Positions 19,295 to 64,000 are shown, counted from the stretch's first letter. The stretch: DNA of 64,000 nucleotides from an uncultured Thermoplasmata archaeon (GCA_963719945.1 CAVRDX010000001.1:842199-906198); one strand, 5' to 3'. Program-made: numbers and translations. The notes: generated by a model not told the origin, from the sequence alone.

Positions 19295-19395
19295 GGGCCC
19301 ATGGTCTAGCGGTTATGACACCTGCTTGACATCGCTTTTCCTCCGGGAAGGCGTCAAATTGCAGGTAATCACCGGTTCGAATCCGGTTGGGCCCA
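19295..19395 (+). tRNA. tRNA-Val(GAC) with 28-nt intron at position 37/38 (19332-19359)
   Basis: Acceptor GGGCCCA/TGGGCCC, anticodon stem CCTGC/GCAGG, GAC at 19328-19330, TTGAC/GTCAA bulge-helix-bulge pairing, GGTTCGAATCC; CCA not encoded. Confidence 0.95.
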
Positions 19396-19600: not shown

Positions 19601-19624
19601 GGTGGACCGAAAGGGATTTGAACC
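19601..19624 (-). repeat. tRNA-Ala-like 3' fragment (att-like)
   Basis: Minus strand GGTTCAAATCCCTTTCGGTCCACC = T loop plus acceptor strand with U70; near-identical copy at 59056. Confidence 0.7.
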
Positions 19625-19679
19625 TCTGAAGTGCCAGTGTGTCAAGACTCGGATTCAATCAACGGGGAATTGGCCGGAG

Positions 19680-19882: not shown

Positions 19883-19937
19883 GAATCGCCTCAGGTGGTT
19901 TAAGGGTTTCTCCGGAGTCCCGCTCCTATGGCATTTT
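19883..19937 (-). repeat. Cassette arm plus promoter repeat, copy A
   Basis: + strand GAATCGCCTCAGGTGGTTTAAGGGTTTCT...CCGCTCCTATGGCATTTT matches the 59-63 kb copies. Confidence 0.75.
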
Positions 19938-54086: not shown

Positions 54087-56210
54087 TCATTCCTCCGGCG
54101 GCTCCTTGTCCGATGCGTCGCTCTTCACGTCCGCGACCTCCTTGCGAATGCGGAGGTACATGACAGACATCAGGACGGCCAACGCCGCGAACACGGCAAG
54201 GGCCACTATCAGCATCAGGTTCTGCGATTGGGCATCGTCCAGTTCCTCGCTCGTTCCCGTCTGCTCGTCCTGGAGTGCGGAGAGATCGTCAAGGGCATCC
54301 TCCAATTCCGCCTCGGCAGCGGTCAGGTTGAGCAGAGCGTCATCCAGCTGTTCCTGGAGAATATCCCCGTCGTCAAGAGCGGCCGTCAGCAGCGTCTGGA
54401 CCGAGACCAGGTCCGCAAGGGCTTCGTCAAGCAGGTCCTGAGCGGCTGTCAGGGATGCAAGGGCATCGTCAAGGTCGTCTTGGACATCAGCGAGTTCTGC
54501 TAGAGCCGCATCCAACTCATCCTGGGCAGCAGTGAGGTTTGCAAGAGCGTCATCCAACTGGTCCTGTAGAGTCGCCAGCTGCTCCTCCAGGGCCGGAACG
54601 GGATCGACGTATGTCACACTGATCGAGACACTCGCAGAGTTGTTCGCGGCATCGGTTGCGATCGCAGTGATCACGTTCGTGCCTTCGACCAGCGCGACAG
54701 TGCAGACGAACGAACCGTTGGACTCGACCCCGATGAGCAGACCGTTTACGCGTAGAGTCACGTCCGGCTCCGTAACACCCGACACGAACACGTTCCCCGT
54801 CTGTGTCGTGAACCCGTCAGAAGGGCTGTCGATAGTGATGATCGGTGGCGTGATGTCAGGAGATAGGTACTGGTTGGCCCATATGTTGCTCCGGATACCG
54901 TCATACTGCGCCCATACGGCGAATACGTTGCCTAGCCCGTCCACAGCAACCCTCTCGTACGATGCAGACTCCGTCTCGCTGGATGAGACCGCCTCGGCAG
55001 CTCCCCAGCCTTCTCCTACGACGTACCTGCTCGAAGATACGAAGTTGCGCACGCCGTCCGACTGAAGCCACAAAGCGGTGGCGTTACCCGAATGATCGAC
55101 CGCCAGCATGGGAATCCAGGCACTCAACTCGTCAGTCTCGACCAGCTCGGGAACTCCCCAGCCTTCGTCGACGACGTATCGGTTGGACCATACGTCATAG
55201 GCGGATCCAGCCATCTGCATCCACACGACCAACGCGTTCCCGTACCCGTCATTCCCCACTCGAGGCCCGGTTGAATCTCCCGAGTCATAGTCCTCTATCA
55301 GCACTGCGGTCCCCCAGCCCTCGCCGACTACGTAATGGTTCGACCACACGTCGTAGATGCCATCGCCCCATTGATACCACACTGCTGTCGCATTACCGGA
55401 TGGGTCGATGGCCACGTTGGCTTGTTCGGCGTACCCCAAAACGTCGGCCGAGATGATCTCTGCAATGCCCCAGCCCTCACCGACGACATATCGGCTTGAG
55501 GATATGTTGTACCATGCCCCTTCCCACTGGGACCAGACGGCGACCACTTCACCGTTATCGTTGGTGGCCAGGTCGACCGAGAAGGCGTCTTCCACGTAGG
55601 ATTCTATTTCCTCAGCCACTCCCCAGCCTTCGCCTACGACGTATCGGTTAGACCATATGTGGCCGTGGCCGCTGTCTACCTGTTCCCACACAGCAGTCGC
55701 ATTGCCAGACGCATCGACGACCACATGAGCGAGACCTGCTTCCTCGGAATGAGTCTCTATCGGTTCCGCAGTGCCCCAGCCCTCACCGACGACGTATCGG
55801 TTCGACCAGACATCGTTCTTGAAATTGACGCTGTCCCACTGCTGCCACACAGCGATTGCGTTGCCCGACCCATCGACCCCCACATGAGGGTAGAAGGTCT
55901 GTTCGGTATCGGTGGAATCGAGACGCTCAGCATGTCCCCAACCCTCATCGAGGACATATCGGTTCGACCATACGCTGTGCCTGAAGCCGTCCCATTGCTC
56001 CCACACGGCGAATGCATCCCCATTAGGGCCAGCGGCTATCTGAGGAGGTTCGGAGCCTCCAGCGTCATTGTACTCGATCAACTCGGCGTCGCCCCAGCCC
56101 TCGTCCGGGTCGGCCCCTGAGCTGTATTCAGATGCGACGCTCACAGATATCAGACACAAGGCGATGAAGATGCAGTAGACTATTCCCAGAACACTTCTCA
56201 TTCGAATCAC
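54087..56210 (-). CDS. Cell-surface protein: signal peptide, about 8 tandem 51-54-aa repeats, Ig-like domain, coiled-coil stalk, C-terminal TM
   Basis: Repeated WSNRYVVGEGWG, DITPP..TIDSP Ig motif, LDDALAxLTAAQ repeats, TM then basic residues. Confidence 0.88.
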   Translation of the reverse strand: MIRMRSVLGIVYCIFIALCLISVSVASEYSSGADPDEGWGDAELIEYNDAGGSEPPQIAAGPNGDAFAVWEQWDGFRHSVWSNRYVLDEGWGHAERLDSTDTEQTFYPHVGVDGSGNAIAVWQQWDSVNFKNDVWSNRYVVGEGWGTAEPIETHSEEAGLAHVVVDASGNATAVWEQVDSGHGHIWSNRYVVGEGWGVAEEIESYVEDAFSVDLATNDNGEVVAVWSQWEGAWYNISSSRYVVGEGWGIAEIISADVLGYAEQANVAIDPSGNATAVWYQWGDGIYDVWSNHYVVGEGWGTAVLIEDYDSGDSTGPRVGNDGYGNALVVWMQMAGSAYDVWSNRYVVDEGWGVPELVETDELSAWIPMLAVDHSGNATALWLQSDGVRNFVSSSRYVVGEGWGAAEAVSSSETESASYERVAVDGLGNVFAVWAQYDGIRSNIWANQYLSPDITPPIITIDSPSDGFTTQTGNVFVSGVTEPDVTLRVNGLLIGVESNGSFVCTVALVEGTNVITAIATDAANNSASVSISVTYVDPVPALEEQLATLQDQLDDALANLTAAQDELDAALAELADVQDDLDDALASLTAAQDLLDEALADLVSVQTLLTAALDDGDILQEQLDDALLNLTAAEAELEDALDDLSALQDEQTGTSEELDDAQSQNLMLIVALAVFAALAVLMSVMYLRIRKEVADVKSDASDKEPPEE
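55000..56110 (-). repeat. Intragenic tandem repeat, period about 153-162 bp
   Basis: CCCCAGCCYTC...GACGTATCGGTT recurs near 55003, 55156, 55312, 55468, 55621, 55774, 55936 and 56092. Confidence 0.85.
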
Positions 56211-58293: not shown

Positions 58294-58378
58294 GCAGGGA
58301 TAGCCAAGCCTGGTCAACGGCGCTAGATTCAGGGTCTAGTCGTGAAGGCGTTCGCCGGTTCAAATCCGGCTCCCTGCA
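58294..58378 (+). tRNA. tRNA-Leu(CAG)
   Basis: GCAGGGA/TCCCTGC acceptor, CTAGA-TTCAGGG-TCTAG anticodon arm, long variable arm, GGTTCAAATCC; upstream TTTATA. Confidence 0.96.
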
Positions 58379-59055
58379 CTTTGCCGATACTGGCTTTTCG
58401 TCAATCAAGGGTTTTTAGCTACGAGCTAAACTCCTTACTCCTTTTTTATTCTGCAACCAGGATTTCATGTGAAACCGGCCCCAAATCGCCCTGCAGGGAT
58501 GATCCGTCTTTTCCCTCTATTATCCCTCTCGAGACCGAGAGGCATCCGAGACGGACCCGAGAGGGAACGCGCAGAGATCGTAATTGCAGAGCCGGAAATC
58601 CCTCTCTCGTCCCTCTTCTTCCCTCTTTTCGGGAGAGTATCAAATTTCCGTGTAAAAGACGGATGTTCTACGTGAGGAAGCGCACTCCTATCGATACAAG
58701 CGCGATTATCACGCTCGCAACCACAACAATAATCCAAAACCGCATTCGCACTCTGCGATTGTTTGCCAACACGGATACGGGCACATTCCACCACGCAAGG
58801 ATATGCCCTCCATCAAGGAGCGGCCTGTCCCTATAGGACCCCCCGCTCCATCCATCTGCCTTTCTGATATGGACAGATCCCGCCGTCTCTGATGGAGCTT
58901 ATCGTAGTCGATGAGGACCTTCGACTCGATAATCATCTTCCCGCGGGAGGACTTCCTTGTCCGTTCCTCAGGTAGCATGTCATCATAGTATTCTCTTGCC
59001 TGATTAAGCAGTTAACTCAGGAATCCCAATCCGATAGAGTTCTAATCGAAATGGA

Positions 59056-59079
59056 GTGGACCGAAGGGGATTTCAACCC
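59056..59079 (-). repeat. tRNA-Ala-like 3' fragment (att-like)
   Basis: Minus strand GGGTTGAAATCCCCTTCGGTCCAC. Confidence 0.7.
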
Positions 59080-59211
59080 ACATTTTCGACTGGCTCGGCT
59101 GAAAAAGGTACATAGTCCTTCCAGAAAGGCATCTCGGGAAGGGTAACGAAAAGGAGGGGTTAATTGCCCCTCGCCTAACCCCTTCTCTTTCCCAATAATC
59201 CGCTAATTTCA

Positions 59212-59361
59212 TTAGGAGAGAATAGCAAAAAGCACTATCGCCACAATCGGCCCTACAACTCCGACCAGAAACATCAGCACATATTGCAGATTGACATCCT
59301 TAGTGAATCTGTTCTTCACCCCCGCTGAGGTTCCGTCATTCGTCGGTATATCCCTGGCCAT
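59212..59361 (-). CDS. Small single-TM peptide (49 aa), not in ORF track
   Basis: MARDIPTNDGTSAGVKNRFTKDVNLQYVLMFLVGVVGPIVAIVLFAILS; SD GGAG. Confidence 0.55.
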   Translation of the reverse strand: MARDIPTNDGTSAGVKNRFTKDVNLQYVLMFLVGVVGPIVAIVLFAILS

Positions 59362-59414
59362 CGACTCTCCGTCAAGTGATGAGATTCTATGGGCATACGC
59401 TTTTCGGTGGCATC

Positions 59415-59441
59415 CCGACTCTATGGCCTTTTCTCACGAAT
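59415..59441. repeat. Cassette arm repeat, copy C
   Basis: CCGACTCTATGGCCTTTTCTCACGAAT. Confidence 0.7.
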
Positions 59442-59654
59442 GACAATAAGAATATTCACGCACGAATATAAATTGACCCTGTGGGATTAGGAATCACAAG
59501 ACTAACTGGCTCACACCCCAAAATGCCCTTGTTAGGGCATCTTCGCCGAGGAGACGGATTGAAAGATAGACCAAAACCCGTTGTTCTTTTAGAGGGGTAT
59601 ATGCCCCTCATCAAACCCCTTCTTTTTCCTCCAGCTCAACGGTCGCCCAGCATT

Positions 59655-60077
59655 CTAGTAGCTGAGCTGCCATCCAACACTGCCGAGTGGGAATATGTTG
59701 ATCTGCAGTACCTGTCCATCGCTCAGTAGATACGGACACACCAGATCTTGTCCTGGCAAGACATCATATCTGAACATGATTGCCGCCGCATCGAATCCGT
59801 TGAACTTGTGAATCTCACTCCCATTGGATGCCAGCGTCCCACTGGCCAACATCACTCCTGTGTGGGCGTAATAGATCTCATACTGGACATCGTTTGGATA
59901 GCTCAGGCTGTCGACCTGTATCGTGGCTTTCTCCACGAACACATCAGTATAGAAGTACGCTAGTGCAAGTGATGCCAACACAATCACAGCAATCACCGCT
60001 GCAGCCAGCTTGACCGATCTGGACTTGCCCTTGTCAGTGAAGGACTTCCTGTTTTCTGCGATGTCAATCTGCCCCAA
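59655..60077 (-). CDS. Single-TM protein with extracellular beta domain
   Basis: TTG 60077 after GGAGG and the cassette promoter; the longer track ORF overlaps another gene. Confidence 0.7.
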   Translation of the reverse strand: MGQIDIAENRKSFTDKGKSRSVKLAAAVIAVIVLASLALAYFYTDVFVEKATIQVDSLSYPNDVQYEIYYAHTGVMLASGTLASNGSEIHKFNGFDAAAIMFRYDVLPGQDLVCPYLLSDGQVLQINIFPLGSVGWQLSY

Positions 60078-60097
60078 TGCCACATCCTCCAATGTCC

Positions 60098-60127
60098 GAA
60101 TCGCTATCGGTGGCTTAATGGCTTCTC
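60098..60127 (-). promoter_or_regulatory. Cassette promoter repeat
   Basis: Minus GAGAAGCCATTAAGCCACCGATAGCGATTC (BRE-TATA-like). Confidence 0.75.
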
Positions 60128-60439
60128 TCATCCAGATGGTTTGCGCCCGCATCGAGGGCAGTAGACCGCATCGGGTGCTTGGGGCGAACCACAGTATGAG
60201 CAGAACGACCCTTGACCAATTGGCTGTTGGGAATGGATTAGTCCCTGGGGTTGATAACCTTGATTGGGTGGCGGTCCATATTGATACATAACCGTAGGTG
60301 GTTTCTCGCTCTGCACAAAGCCGATTATCATAATGACCAACCCGACAATTACGAGTATCCCTCCCAAACAGCAGAGCCATCCGAAAATGATCCCGACAAC
60401 AATTAGGACTAGGCCAATCACCACTGTGTTGGTTTTCAA
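60128..60439 (-). CDS. 2-TM protein with C-terminal zinc ribbon
   Basis: TTG start, 2 TMs, Pro/Gln linker, FCSYCG..YCPRCG. Confidence 0.75.
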   Translation of the reverse strand: MKTNTVVIGLVLIVVGIIFGWLCCLGGILVIVGLVIMIIGFVQSEKPPTVMYQYGPPPNQGYQPQGLIHSQQPIGQGSFCSYCGSPQAPDAVYCPRCGRKPSG

Positions 60440-60473
60440 CCACCGACACCAGAGGCGGATTGATCCTGGGCAT

Positions 60474-60503
60474 CTTAAGGGCTTCTCTTCTGCCCCTATG
60501 ACC
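60474..60503 (-). repeat. Cassette arm plus promoter repeat, copy D
   Basis: + strand CTTAAGGGCTTCTCTTCTGCCCCTATGACC. Confidence 0.7.
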
Positions 60504-60613
60504 ACATCTCACAATAAGCCACCACTGTGCATCCTATCGAATGTGATATGTAATCAGTGAGCGACCTTCAATCGGGAGATGTGCAAGCTCGGGCGTGAAA
60601 TCATATTGTTATC

Positions 60614-61147
60614 TCAAGACGGCACGTCCCACCTTGACTCCATTGTGATCCTGGGCGGCAGCCTCTTCACTAGCAGTTCTCTTATGACTGCTGCGTACTC
60701 GGAGAGAAGCTCATTCCACCTCCGTATCCACTGTGACTGTCCTTCAGACATCCCCTCGACTAGCAACCTCTGCTTGATGTACAGATTGGCGTCGATAGCG
60801 ACGGTAAGCTTCTTCGGCTTCTCTCCCTCTGCACAATGTGATATCCAGAGTCCCAGCTTGTCGTATGTCCTGTTCGGCTGCACCGGAGGGGCGTAGAATC
60901 GCAGATTCCTCACGGTCGAATAAGGTATTACGATGGTTCCGACCTGCGCCGCTAGTCTGTCCGCATCAGTCACTCTGTCTATTGGTTGCGAGTGTATCTT
61001 CTCAGGCCAATTCGGTCTGTTCGCCTTGGAAACCTCGACGAGGAGGAAGCTATTGCGAGTAATGACAAGATCATAGGTTTTGTGAGTGAACCAGCTATAT
61101 GAGGCGATTACGCCCCTGACCACCGGATCGTCGTCCTCGTTCGCCAT
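60614..61147 (-). CDS. Hypothetical protein (PH-like pattern)
   Basis: YDLVIT..SFLLV and IPYSTV; own promoter. Confidence 0.7.
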   Translation of the reverse strand: MANEDDDPVVRGVIASYSWFTHKTYDLVITRNSFLLVEVSKANRPNWPEKIHSQPIDRVTDADRLAAQVGTIVIPYSTVRNLRFYAPPVQPNRTYDKLGLWISHCAEGEKPKKLTVAIDANLYIKQRLLVEGMSEGQSQWIRRWNELLSEYAAVIRELLVKRLPPRITMESRWDVPS

Positions 61148-61156
61148 TTCTGTTCC

Positions 61157-61186
61157 GAATCGCTCTCGATGGCTTAAGGCCTTCTC
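61157..61186 (-). promoter_or_regulatory. Cassette promoter repeat E
   Basis: Minus GAGAAGGCCTTAAGCCATCGAGAGCGATTC; its TAA is the stop of the upstream gene. Confidence 0.78.
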
Positions 61187-61638
61187 TCATCTGAAGGAGG
61201 AGGATTCGGTAAATGGCCGCCTGGACTGATAGATAGAATCCTTCCGAGAATACCCGCAGGCTTCTGACGGTATCCTACTCCAATAGGGTAGACCAGACTT
61301 ACCAACACAATGACTGCGCCAACGAGTGCCAAATATGGGCCAATCCCTGAAGGTAGTTTGCCGTCGGTGTTAGAAATGAAGGCCGATATAAAGAGAGGAA
61401 CCCCGACGATCTGCATTACCCCTCCCAGAGGCGATATGAAAGCTACAACTGCTCCAATCAGGCATAGAATGGCTGGAAGCCAAAAATCCGATGAGCTTTC
61501 AACTTGATTGTAGACGTCTATCAGGTTCATCTCCCTGCTCCAGAACATGAAGCCCACAGTAATCCAAGTAGAGAAGACCGCAACCACGCCGATAACCGCA
61601 CCCACTATGCATAGTATGTTTAGACGCACTCTTGCCAT
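61174..61638 (-). CDS. 4-TM membrane protein, paralog of the 63432 gene
   Basis: LNILCIVGAVI..W and SPLGGVMQIVG match VNLLCLLGAVI..W and TPLGGIPQIVG. Confidence 0.8.
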   Translation of the reverse strand: MARVRLNILCIVGAVIGVVAVFSTWITVGFMFWSREMNLIDVYNQVESSSDFWLPAILCLIGAVVAFISPLGGVMQIVGVPLFISAFISNTDGKLPSGIGPYLALVGAVIVLVSLVYPIGVGYRQKPAGILGRILSISPGGHLPNPPPSDERRP

Positions 61639-61653
61639 TTCGTACCGCCCTCA

Positions 61654-61702
61654 TAATCGCTCTCAATGGCTTAAGGGCTTCTATCCGCCCCTATGGCATT
61701 TT
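61654..61702 (-). repeat. Cassette arm plus promoter repeat, copy F (closest to consensus)
   Basis: + strand TAATCGCTCTCAATGGCTTAAGGGCTTCTATCCGCCCCTATGGCATTTT. Confidence 0.8.
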
Positions 61703-61789
61703 TCCAAAATGAGATGGCCGAAGTCAGATCCTCTCCATGGCAAGTGCGCACAAGTCCACTTGGTCACCAGATAATTCAGGGTGACTAGA

Positions 61790-62359
61790 CTACCTAATCA
61801 TCCTGTCAGCGATGGCCTTGCCAATAATATCCCGTGCCTCTGGAGGTTCCAGCCGTCTACACTGTTTCAGGCTGAGTGAATCCACTTCGAACATCTTGTC
61901 GTATGTGCTTTTGTATCCTGAATACTCACCCGAAAAGCTCACTTCAAGCATCTGAATGAACACGATATTCACTACCGAGCAGGTCGCGATTGAATCAAGG
62001 CTCGAAGAGATGAATATCTCAGGATTTGGCTTAAAACCAAATTTCTGCCTTGCGAGAATGAATCTCTGGTTCGTGATTAATACATAGCAACCAAATGACC
62101 AACTCTCTTCGTTGGATCCCTTGATGAGGAATTCCAGAAGGTTTCTCTGTCCGCCATCTCTTCTAGAGACGTTGCAATTCGCACTCCACATGCAGACGAT
62201 CTTCTCATCAGCTCTGAGGCCAAACAATGTTCCACATTGTGTAAACTGTGAAGAGTCCTCTGTTAGTTGTCTTTGTTCCTTGATTGTCCCAGCGCATGTG
62301 CCGCAATACATAACGTAATCAGGGTTCTCAGCACCGCACCTTGGGCACTTCACGGCCAT
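61790..62359 (-). CDS. Zinc ribbon plus PH-like domain protein
   Basis: CPRCG.EN....YCGTC; VLITNQRFIL. Confidence 0.75.
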   Translation of the reverse strand: MAVKCPRCGAENPDYVMYCGTCAGTIKEQRQLTEDSSQFTQCGTLFGLRADEKIVCMWSANCNVSRRDGGQRNLLEFLIKGSNEESWSFGCYVLITNQRFILARQKFGFKPNPEIFISSSLDSIATCSVVNIVFIQMLEVSFSGEYSGYKSTYDKMFEVDSLSLKQCRRLEPPEARDIIGKAIADRMIR

Positions 62360-62371
62360 TTCTCCATGTCC

Positions 62372-62451
62372 AAATCGTTTTCGACGACTTAATTACTTCT
62401 CTTCCGCCCCCATGGCATCTTCTCATGAATGGTGGACCCTGTGGGGAAACC
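62372..62451 (-). repeat. Complete unit, copy G: tRNA-Ala-like 3' end, arm and promoter
   Basis: Minus GGTTTCCCCACAGGGTCCACCA-TTCATGAGAAGATGCCATGGGGGCGG-AAGAGAAGTAATTAAGTCGTCGAAAACGATTT. Confidence 0.72.
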
Positions 62452-62584
62452 TAGTGGAGCTAGCCAGCAAGTCGAGGTTGTCTGTCAATCAACGGTGATC
62501 GTACTCGGACCCAAACCACTTAACCATTATCAAGATAGCGAGACGAACCATCTCCCTTTAGACGCATTCAGTTCTTGCGTTAGG

Positions 62585-62857
62585 CTAGTCAGCCCTAGGG
62601 GTCATCATTCTGGGCAATATCATGAGAGTGAGTGAAACGCTGACTGCTATTGAACCAATGGCAACCATGAGAACGCCTGCCACAATTCCTTCTCTGTTAG
62701 GAGGCATGAGGAAGTATCCACCATAATCATCGCCGACGTCGTCGATTGGAATCCCGAGCCCTACAGCGCTGCAATTCCAGATTGCAAGAGTCCCAAGGAC
62801 TATAAGCAGCACTCCAACCGCTGCTCCTCCTGCTAACAGCACTAACTTACGCTGCAT
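62585..62857 (-). CDS. Small 2-TM protein
   Basis: Two hydrophobic helices; own promoter. Confidence 0.7.
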   Translation of the reverse strand: MQRKLVLLAGGAAVGVLLIVLGTLAIWNCSAVGLGIPIDDVGDDYGGYFLMPPNREGIVAGVLMVAIGSIAVSVSLTLMILPRMMTPRAD

Positions 62858-62875
62858 TTTCCCACACTCGCTTCA

Positions 62876-62905
62876 GAATCTCCTTTAATGGCTTAAGTGC
62901 TTCTC
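62876..62905 (-). promoter_or_regulatory. Cassette promoter repeat H
   Basis: Minus GAGAAGCACTTAAGCCATTAAAGGAGATTC. Confidence 0.72.
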
Positions 62906-62924
62906 TTGATCAATGGCGTATTCA

Positions 62925-63395
62925 TCAGAGATCATCTTCCCTAGACACAACGCCATGTACCATTACAATCAGACCGATAATGGCGACCACAAGGGATAAT
63001 GCTTGGATGATAGGGTCAATCGAATGTGTCACTGTCTCGTAGTATCCCATGCCCATGTAGACATCGTGCCAGACTTGTTCAGTCCAGGTGTATGTAATCG
63101 CCCAGTAGAACACGCCGAAGAATACGGCAGCTACAAGACCTCCTCCTAAGACATGGTTCGTTCTGATTCTCAGGGGTTGAGGCGACTGACGGTCGCTAAG
63201 GGCCGAAGGGCCATTTTCCATCATGCGTGGGGACAGAGCTTTGCCGCAGCCGCCGCAAAACTTCACATTTAGGTTGTTGATGAAACCACACATCGAGCAT
63301 CGAATAGCGACCGCTCCAACGTCCAGATGGTTTCCGCACTGCCCACAAAATTTGAGCCCCCACGAATTCTCTGCTCCGCAGTTCGGACACTTCAT
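62925..63395 (-). CDS. Double zinc-ribbon protein with 2 TMs
   Basis: MKCPNCG..FCGQCG..CSMCG..FCGGCG; SD GGTGA. Confidence 0.78.
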   Translation of the reverse strand: MKCPNCGAENSWGLKFCGQCGNHLDVGAVAIRCSMCGFINNLNVKFCGGCGKALSPRMMENGPSALSDRQSPQPLRIRTNHVLGGGLVAAVFFGVFYWAITYTWTEQVWHDVYMGMGYYETVTHSIDPIIQALSLVVAIIGLIVMVHGVVSREDDL

Positions 63396-63431
63396 GACAA
63401 CATCACCTACCTGATACCAGCTTTTCACGCT

Positions 63432-64000
63432 CTACCTATATGCACTCCACGTCAGCAACTTGGCTGCCAGTGTGGGTTCCTGGTCGCGACTATATCCTGT
63501 ACCGACGGGCTCAAGGAAGCTCAGTATTACGATTCCTGCAGCTAGCAGAGCAATAACGACTCCTATCCCTGGGATGAGGTCATGTTCGGGAATTCTACTG
63601 GTCAGTACTGTCGATACAAACCCAACAGATCCGACTATTTGGGGAATCCCGCCTAATGGTGTGAGAAAAGACAATACAGTTCCGATGATGAAGAGAGTAA
63701 CTGAATACCGAAAGCTGTCAGGAAATTCGCTGCCGCCTGCCAGAGGTTCGTCGAAATCGAATGCTCCGATGCCTATCTCCTCTCCCAGGCGGTCGGGAGT
63801 TATCGCCCAAGGAAGAAACAGCGCAACCACTGCAATTACGGCACCCAATAGACACAGCAAATTGACTCTGAGCTTATACGGTGGACCTCTTGAAGGCGCC
63901 TGCACTTGTTGGTATTGCATGGGCTGAGCTAGCATCGCACCACACTCTCCGCAGAATCGCATTTCTTCAGAGTTATCCGTTCCACAGTTCGAACACTTCA
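63432..64000 (-). CDS. Zinc ribbon plus 4-TM protein; start just outside window
   Basis: Frame open to the edge: KCSNCGTDNSEEMRFCGECG, then a TM domain paralogous to 61174-61638. Confidence 0.8.
   Translation of the reverse strand, partial: KCSNCGTDNSEEMRFCGECGAMLAQPMQYQQVQAPSRGPPYKLRVNLLCLLGAVIAVVALFLPWAITPDRLGEEIGIGAFDFDEPLAGGSEFPDSFRYSVTLFIIGTVLSFLTPLGGIPQIVGSVGFVSTVLTSRIPEHDLIPGIGVVIALLAAGIVILSFLEPVGTGYSRDQEPTLAAKLLTWSAYR

Follow-up and report, generated by a model that had tools for sequence, protein, structure and literature searches.

A tRNA-Ala-associated gene-cassette array in an uncultured Thermoplasmata archaeon, probably built by tandem accretion of integrase-less units

Genes and tRNA-derived ends of the array

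We analysed a 64,000-nt stretch, hereafter the window, of the genome of an uncultured Thermoplasmata archaeon (GCA_963719945.1 CAVRDX010000001.1:842199-906198). Its last part, positions 59056 to 64000, holds an array of nine small open reading frames (ORFs), all on the minus strand, in blocks marked by a recurrent 18-nt box that we call ARM. This arrangement had been noticed in a first-pass annotation made from the sequence alone, and it is borne out here. That annotation proposed an undescribed, integron-like system in which cassettes are inserted at a tRNA-Ala site by a recombinase acting in trans; our preferred explanation is the tandem accretion of tiny integrase-less units. The source genome (G000; 1.78 Mb, 4 contigs, 87% complete) contains the window as G000:C1:842199-906198; contig C1 has 906198 bases, and the last base of the window is the contig end. 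The G+C content falls from about 0.55 to 0.49-0.50 across the final 6 kb of the window.

Among the products of the nine genes are proteins with a zinc ribbon, a membrane region or both, and others without a Pfam match; most are unrelated to one another, the exception being the paralogues G1 and G5 (35% identity). Assignments rest on ORFs with a Pfam scan for G2-G4 and G6-G8, and on the ORF with a comparison of products for G5:

63432-63998, minus: G1, zinc ribbon and membrane region; first codons lost at the contig end; the orthologue in the congener G005 has 191 aa
62925-63428, minus: G2, double zinc ribbon and membrane region
62585-62857, minus: G3, 90-aa membrane protein
61790-62359, minus: G4, zinc ribbon and possible bacterial PH-like domain
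61174-61638, minus: G5, 154-aa membrane protein
60614-61147, minus: G6, 177 aa, no family match
60128-60505, minus: G7, membrane protein with a zinc ribbon at the C-terminus
59655-60083, minus: G8, membrane-anchored protein of ~142 aa, GTG start predicted
59212-59361, minus: G9, 49-aa membrane-like ORF, no significant Pfam match

Comparison of the genome's tRNAs with the array by BLAST identified three genuine tRNA-Ala 3' fragments (cores), all co-oriented on the minus strand. Those at 62432 and 59056 had been recognized in the first-pass annotation, and the third, at 59475-59488, had not been listed. Read in gene orientation, a conserved non-coding arm of ~130 nt (an el arm) stands before each of the two best fragments; its two subtypes, elA and elB, are related to each other in sequence. 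On our reading the array would comprise four partly decayed units, U1 ending at 62432, U2 near 61706, U3 at 59475 and U4 at 59056. U4 (59056-59474) and U3 (59475-61705) each have an el arm and core at the distal end and a linker plus ARM at the start. The decayed junction trace claimed to follow 61685 does align with a TGC-type core and its flank, over 16/19 columns with 3 gaps; from this alignment, we regard a remnant of that kind as plausible but weak.

62446-62521, minus: third arm type, upstream of the 62432 core; matches in G005 and G009
62432-62445, minus: CGC-type core, distal end of U1; 14/14 against tRNA-Ala(CGC) positions 60-73
62429-62445, minus: the same core with encoded CCA, from which a linker, ttcatgag, leads to the next ARM; a tandem, attP-like junction
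61706-61724 (approximate), minus: possible decayed TGC-type core plus flank, U2/U3 boundary
59489-59634, minus: elB, upstream of the 59475 core
59475-59488, minus: CGC-type core lacking the last three bases, distal end of U3; 14/14 against tRNA-Ala(CGC) positions 57-70
59080-59200, minus: elA, lying upstream of the 59056 core and carrying a terminator-like hairpin with a T-run
59056-59079, minus: TGC-type core (T-arm plus acceptor 3' strand), distal end of U4; 23/24 against tRNA-Ala(TGC) positions 50-73

The arms recur well beyond the array. G000 contains five copies of elB, the other four at C1:86227, 87224, 90836 and 711820, and further copies are present in G005, G006, G010 and G013. The third arm matches G005:C1:64927-65048 at 80% (62402-62521) and G009:C147:117-206 at 84% (62432-62521).

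Junctions and occupied sites in relatives

We collected 41 elA/elB copies from 20 family loci, with up to 92% identity across genera, and aligned 24 elA copies. In 13 of the 41, the core continues through CCA and the linker tttcttgag into ARM; four run from the core into a native tRNA flank, CCTAYGCRTAGCCAGACA, and 24 diverge directly after TCCA. We call CCTAYGCRTAGCCAGACA native because it is found behind intact genes for tRNA-Ala(TGC), tRNA-Ala(CGC) and tRNA-Gly(GCC) in G000, where the shared flank CCTAYGCRTAGCCAGACA ... TTTTCAAT occupies C1:84905-84945, C1:480058-480098 and C1:300015-300054 respectively. A looser motif, CTGGCT-TTTTC-AATCAG-GGG, lies behind other tRNAs of the family, and the conserved downstream flank could be a terminator or part of an attB site. 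ARM is found 8-16 nt downstream of intact tRNA-Ala(TGC) or tRNA-Gly(GCC) genes in the loci L152, L041 and L141, and at least 17 junctions link the box to a tRNA core with conserved spacing. These classes correspond to attachment (att) site junctions, and empty-site, attL, attR and tandem (attP-like) types are therefore all observed.

A complete unit is present on the metagenome contig L152, reading tRNA-Ala(TGC) - CCA - tttctgag - ARM - ORF - hairpin - elA - core. It is 1.6 kb long, with a single 445-aa ORF on the other strand and no integrase. In G005, tRNA-Ala(TGC) is separated from a displaced core copy by two units of one gene each, both with elA plus core as their end. The first ~16 flank bases of the displaced copy equal the native flank. 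The tRNA-Ala(TGC) site of G000 is empty: the native flank stands directly behind the tRNA, and the upstream flank is 87% identical to that of G005. Past the native flank, homology between the two genomes is not retained. The three cores in the window, with clean pairs in L152 and G005, represent tRNA 3' ends directly repeated around inserted DNA. The earlier proposal that small integrase-less units enter tRNA-Ala sites is supported by the four junction types in relatives, together with the insertion polymorphism between G000 and G005 at tRNA-Ala(TGC) and with homologous tyrosine integrases located beside such cores in sister genomes.

We considered whether an el arm and its tRNA-like end might instead form a small structured RNA gene, the arrays then being RNA gene clusters. 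The element is non-coding, ~150 nt long and highly conserved across genera, and a T-arm-like hairpin, an acceptor strand and an encoded CCA are still present in it, as they might be in such a gene. This explanation is barely credible, because RNAalifold gave only -2.4 kcal/mol and a 3-bp T stem for elA and -8.2 with one hairpin for elB, the 5' acceptor strand is absent, Rfam matched only two true tRNAs over 18000-64000, and the junction classes suit att sites. With no shared fold and no Rfam family, a structured-RNA reading of the arms themselves was rejected. So was their reading as coding integrase remnants, given single-base indels between copies and no similarity to integrase 3' ends. We read the el arms as DNA sites because they share no RNA fold and the indels exclude coding. 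The att-defining repeat is the tRNA-Ala core with the ~130-nt el arm on its upstream side, not the 18-nt box.

Two further features of the arms were observed. A GCCAG box occurs in them about 20 nt upstream of the core. At G000:C1:479081-479425, ~0.7-1 kb downstream of tRNA-Ala(CGC), the order is ARM and promoter-like block, small gene and elA-like arm; a variant core, AATTCCAATGAGTCGA, closes this arm and adjoins an ARM-like box, and the variant was found again at five loci of relatives.

The ARM box and its promoter-like block

Within the window, the 18-mer of the first-pass annotation matches at 59415 (3 mismatches), 61685 (0), 62404 (2), 19920 and 20404, five matches against 0.05 expected from shuffles. 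Three of the four sites claimed for the array are therefore good copies. The fourth, at 60490, is decayed, with 6/18 mismatches to that 18-mer and 5/18 to the family consensus AAAAGGCCATAGGGGCGG; its context is homologous (76% over 38 nt with 62388-62425). ARM is commonly followed by a 38-nt block, PROM, made up of GAGAAGCCCTTAAGCCAT-cgagaGCGATTCgga, a G-rich stretch and ATG, which is promoter-like by sequence. Five PROM blocks are present in the array, each before a gene. The gap between the two is 0-2 nt in most copies that have PROM, and 7 nt at 19920. The copies in the array are:

62873-62910, minus: PROM upstream of G3
62369-62421, minus: ARM (62404-62421) and diverged PROM (62369-62406)
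61651-61702, minus: ARM (61685-61702), then directly PROM (61651-61688)
61154-61191, minus: PROM upstream of G6
60474-60507, minus: decayed ARM and truncated PROM
60095-60132, minus: PROM upstream of G8, with GAGAAGCCATTAAGCCAC ... GCGATTCGGA resembling a transcription factor B (TFB) recognition element (BRE) and TATA box
59415-59432, minus: ARM, 2 mismatches to consensus, separated from the core by a 32-nt insertion and the linker cattcgtgag

Contig C1 stops a few codons inside G1 (window 63998-64000), just before its expected PROM, which suggests that assembly halted at this repeated promoter; no overlap was found between the contig ends of G000. The copies at 19920 and 20404, one of them with PROM and a membrane gene of ~55 aa, lie in a neighbourhood that includes an intron-containing tRNA (19295-19395, plus strand; detected by Rfam and missed by ARAGORN) and, downstream of it, a tRNA-Ala(TGC)-type 3' fragment (19602-19629, minus strand; 26/28).

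Among 46 family genomes, 35 carry 5-60 copies of ARM, the reversed control pattern giving 0-1, and the box is present in more than 120 metagenome contigs. It is nearly invariant over 18-24 nt, with genus-specific variants (GGCC...GCGG as against G[C/A]CC...GAGG). Most copies have no tRNA fragment beside them, and these numbers, with the placement next to PROM, do not fit the claim that the box is a tRNA-derived att arm. The 5' half of ARM resembles the purine run AAAGG(C) found before the TATA boxes of tRNA genes in G000. A co-oriented ORF starts within 75 nt of 58% of ARMs, compared with 36% in the opposite direction and 25% for random positions. From its sequence and position, ARM would be the att-proximal end box of a cassette, heading the cassette promoter; most likely it is a protein-binding site that doubles as an upstream element of that promoter. 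Were PROM the core promoter, transcription would be expected to start about 25 nt downstream of CTTAAGCC. The idea that ARM is read by an alternative TFB was rejected, one TFB gene being present in each of five family genomes whether ARM-rich or ARM-free. No exact match to ARM was found in IMG/VR, where a viral origin was sought.

These properties might be those of an ordinary regulon, in which ARM and PROM are the common promoter of locally duplicated membrane and zinc-ribbon genes and the tRNA fragments are unrelated scars. The same promoter block does precede about 11 small genes genome-wide, ARM is co-oriented with the genes downstream, G1 and G5 are paralogues, and several products have zinc ribbons. 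We nevertheless consider a regulon quite improbable. The lack of relationship between most cassette products speaks against local duplication, and gene content differs between congeners whose flanks are 92-94% identical. ARM is also patchy within genera (0 copies in G004, 18 in G010), some copies have no co-oriented gene behind them, and the box is physically linked to tRNA cores with the conserved spacing given above.

A true integron-like system would make ARM the recombination site and the tRNA core plus ARM an attI-like primary site, served by a dedicated recombinase in trans. There is much in the distribution of ARM that recalls this. Dense co-oriented arrays, such as 14 ARMs in 9.5 kb in G055, have unrelated single genes between the boxes. 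A 260-nt cassette, 96% identical at unrelated loci of G020 and G055, is bounded exactly by two ARMs, so that homology stops at their edges. Many breaks in homology between genomes coincide with the box: 45/152 internal breakpoints lie no more than 25 nt from an ARM, where 4% would be expected, an enrichment of about 7-fold. The spacing between ARM and the core is also constant for at least three tRNA species, and remains so where the cargo gene is reversed (L152, L025:5657, L029:8054); the el arm itself contains an ARM-like box, GAGATGCC. However, homologous recombination at identical repeats of 18-24 nt predicts the breakpoints equally well, and BLAST alignments by construction extend into conserved boxes. 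ARM lacks dyad symmetry, as read from its sequence, and a conserved hairpin, and the el arms lack a conserved fold, in agreement with the earlier statement that no attC-type ends are visible. No recombinase co-varies with ARM number, there are zero IntI-like genes near the arrays examined, and PROM at 0-2 nt with a BRE-like 5' half suits a transcriptional role. We therefore judge a true integron-like system unlikely; the proposed working fails on each defining feature tested (IntI, attC and the common promoter Pc). ARM may still serve as a recombination breakpoint at which cassettes are shuffled between arrays, because it is near-identical in dozens of copies.

One unrelated occurrence of the box was noted. 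On L079 (785-910; Ga0123353_10047867), a contig unrelated apart from its ARM repeats, five tandem 27-nt repeats hold the exact 18-mer within the inverted repeat ACCGCCC...GGGCGGT, which may be chance or another use of the motif.

Origin of the array and comparison with known systems

The array lies in an island that varies between congeners. Its start is marked by an intact tRNA gene:

58294-58379, plus: tRNA-Leu(CAG), detected by ARAGORN and Rfam; the variable island starts downstream

Homology of the island flank to the congeners G006 and G010 stops at or just past the 3' end of this tRNA. Homology to G005 stops at 58626 and restarts only at 62890, inside the PROM of G3, and between these breaks G005 carries 8.8 kb of different content; gene content is thus not fixed among congeners. 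The array in G005 goes on past the homologous part with four more PROM-headed genes and then bacterial-like sequence. From about 511600 on G005:C1 (L023/L024), right after the array, there are G+C-rich, bacterial-looking genes, MerR-like, heavy-metal-associated domain, PIN toxin and resolvase-like, and this switch may reflect a chimeric assembly or a foreign insertion.

Searches of the window with the tyrosine (PF00589, PF16795) and serine (PF00239) recombinase families gave no match, as expected from the first-pass annotation. The whole of G000 has two tyrosine recombinases, both outside the window: at C1:430308-431030 a Xer-like gene, and at C2:21636-22748 an integrase of the tRNA-Leu(CAG) type. 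A split integrase of the SSV type was rejected, there being zero PF16795 matches in G000 and no conservation as coding of the ORFs across el arms. The C2 integrase is followed after 59 nt by a 21-nt tRNA-Leu(CAG) 3' fragment (C2:22807-22827) in the same orientation as the gene. Close homologues are convergent with an intact tRNA-Leu(CAG) in six Thermoplasmata metagenome-assembled genomes (MAGs), one of which is G006, where the site is orthologous to the start of the present island. Contig C2 also carries co-oriented PROM genes, and the DNA past its tRNA-Leu fragment is itself accessory; C2 may represent a distal portion of this island, or an inversion may have occurred.

The integrase family is widespread, with many C-terminal remnants. 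Paralogues with 32-38% identity to the C2 integrase stand directly beside tRNA-Ala cores in G006 (L034:4557-5861 and L035:10663-11601), and in G000 a 44-aa integrase remnant lies beside tRNA-Ala(TGC) (C1:85044-85175). The idea of a trans-acting recombinase for tRNA-Ala sites thus finds homologous integrases at cores in G006, but only a remnant in G000. Because no tRNA-Ala-type integrase is left there, the units are probably immobile in this genome.

We propose, with a probability of about 0.6, that the array arose by tandem accretion of tiny integrase-less units targeting tRNA-Ala 3' ends, inside a hypervariable tRNA-Leu(CAG) island. In gene orientation, a unit would consist of a linker and the 18-nt ARM, usually PROM 0-2 nt later, one to four cargo genes, a hairpin with T-run, the ~130-nt el arm and the tRNA-Ala T-arm plus acceptor core. 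The attachment site of the circularized unit would then read el - core - CCA - linker - ARM. Tyrosine integrases associated with tRNA-Ala cores would presumably move such units in trans, in the fashion of cis-mobilizable elements (CIMEs). We also entertain, as a tentative and rather doubtful extension, an integron-like cassette economy, in which tRNA-specific tyrosine integrases capture, in trans and at several tRNAs, single genes that carry a ~200-nt phage-type site (el - core - ARM) and a portable promoter, with later reshuffling between arrays at ARM.

Several observations weigh against accretion at tRNA-Ala sites. Clean repeats at both ends are lacking in U2 and U3, where the trace at 61706 is weak, and U3 holds four genes with PROM blocks inside. 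The head of the array has no intact tRNA-Ala (contig C1 ends at that point), and neither tRNA-Ala nor a recombinase was found in the 3.6-kb extension of the array in G005. ARM is not always a promoter, because the gene behind it is on the opposite strand in the three loci with reversed cargo. ARM number follows neither integrase presence nor TFB genes: an integrase fragment is all that accompanies the 41 ARMs of G055, the 18 of G010 go with zero integrase matches, and G004 has two integrases and zero ARMs. The comparison genomes are, moreover, mostly incomplete MAGs, in which repeats are prone to misassembly.

Accretion of this kind has precedents, and to call the system undescribed was too strong. 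In bacteria, CIMEs, described for streptococcal integrative and conjugative or mobilizable elements (ICEs/IMEs), are integrase-less elements that keep their att sites and accrete with newcomers (PMC5704250), and in archaea tandem re-use of one integration site by tyrosine-recombinase elements is known (PMC6563490). The resemblance extends to several points: the integrase is lost or was never present while att sites are kept, none of the nine products being a recombinase; serial insertions at tRNA 3' ends lead to head-to-tail arrays split by tRNA-end copies; and the related integrases are tyrosine recombinases. Unlike those elements, the present units are far smaller (0.4-3 kb, often one gene) and stereotyped, in that a promoter box heads each of them and a ~130-nt arm stands at the opposite end, and they occur at several tRNA species and also away from intact tRNAs. 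Their host is an uncultured Thermoplasmata lineage, and their mobilization in trans is our suggestion. The array is a small-scale archaeal form of known tandem island build-up, not a true integron; what is unusual is the size of the units, their uniformity and their spread over several tRNAs.

G000 itself offers two parallels. A tRNA-Arg(TCG) array likewise repeats a conserved arm plus tRNA 3' end around integrase-less single-gene units. It uses another tRNA and arm sequence and lies directly behind its intact tRNA, whereas the array studied here has ARM/PROM modules and stands apart from any tRNA-Ala. At tRNA-Leu(CAA) (G000:C1:139110-157855), eight direct repeats of a ~95-nt arm and 16-nt tRNA 3' end are spaced 1-7.5 kb apart, the arm differing in sequence from elA and elB.

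Two other systems share part of this organization. In T4-type phages, the promoter-terminator motifs of early promoter-stem-loop (PeSL) mobile regulatory cassettes mediate shuffling of small ORFs (PMC2839356, PMC4122927). There too, small genes of mostly unknown function lie in hyperplastic regions, a conserved promoter (and terminator stem-loop) flanks each gene, and exchanges break at the motifs. The present setting differs in being a cellular archaeal chromosome, and the motif in being of archaeal BRE/TATA type, with an 18-nt upstream box that is also joined to tRNA-derived cores; its promoter activity is predicted. Integrons have been reported in Archaea (bioRxiv 10.1101/2022.02.06.479319, also PMC9668308) and resemble the array in their co-oriented single-gene cassettes, the recurrent site between them and an order that varies among relatives. 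In contrast to integrons, the array has no IntI gene, attI, common Pc or attC-type imperfect inverted repeats, each cassette appears to have its own promoter-like block, and the recurrent site goes back to a tRNA 3' end with arms, on the pattern of a phage-type attP.

If they are moved in trans, these units, with one gene, a promoter and an att site, would be the smallest integrative elements known in archaea, and would explain the gain and exchange of small membrane and zinc-ribbon 'dark matter' genes in islands of sediment Thermoplasmata. The el - core - ARM site and the adjoining integrases make a directly testable recombination system, and the invariant ARM/PROM unit is a candidate for use as a portable promoter in a lineage without genetic tools. 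For annotation, a tRNA fragment with a ~130-nt arm marks a cassette end, and the 18-nt box a cassette start.

Elsewhere in the window, at 54087-56210 on the minus strand, a 707-aa predicted surface protein has about ten repeats of the motif WSNRYVVGEGWG and a C-terminal membrane anchor.

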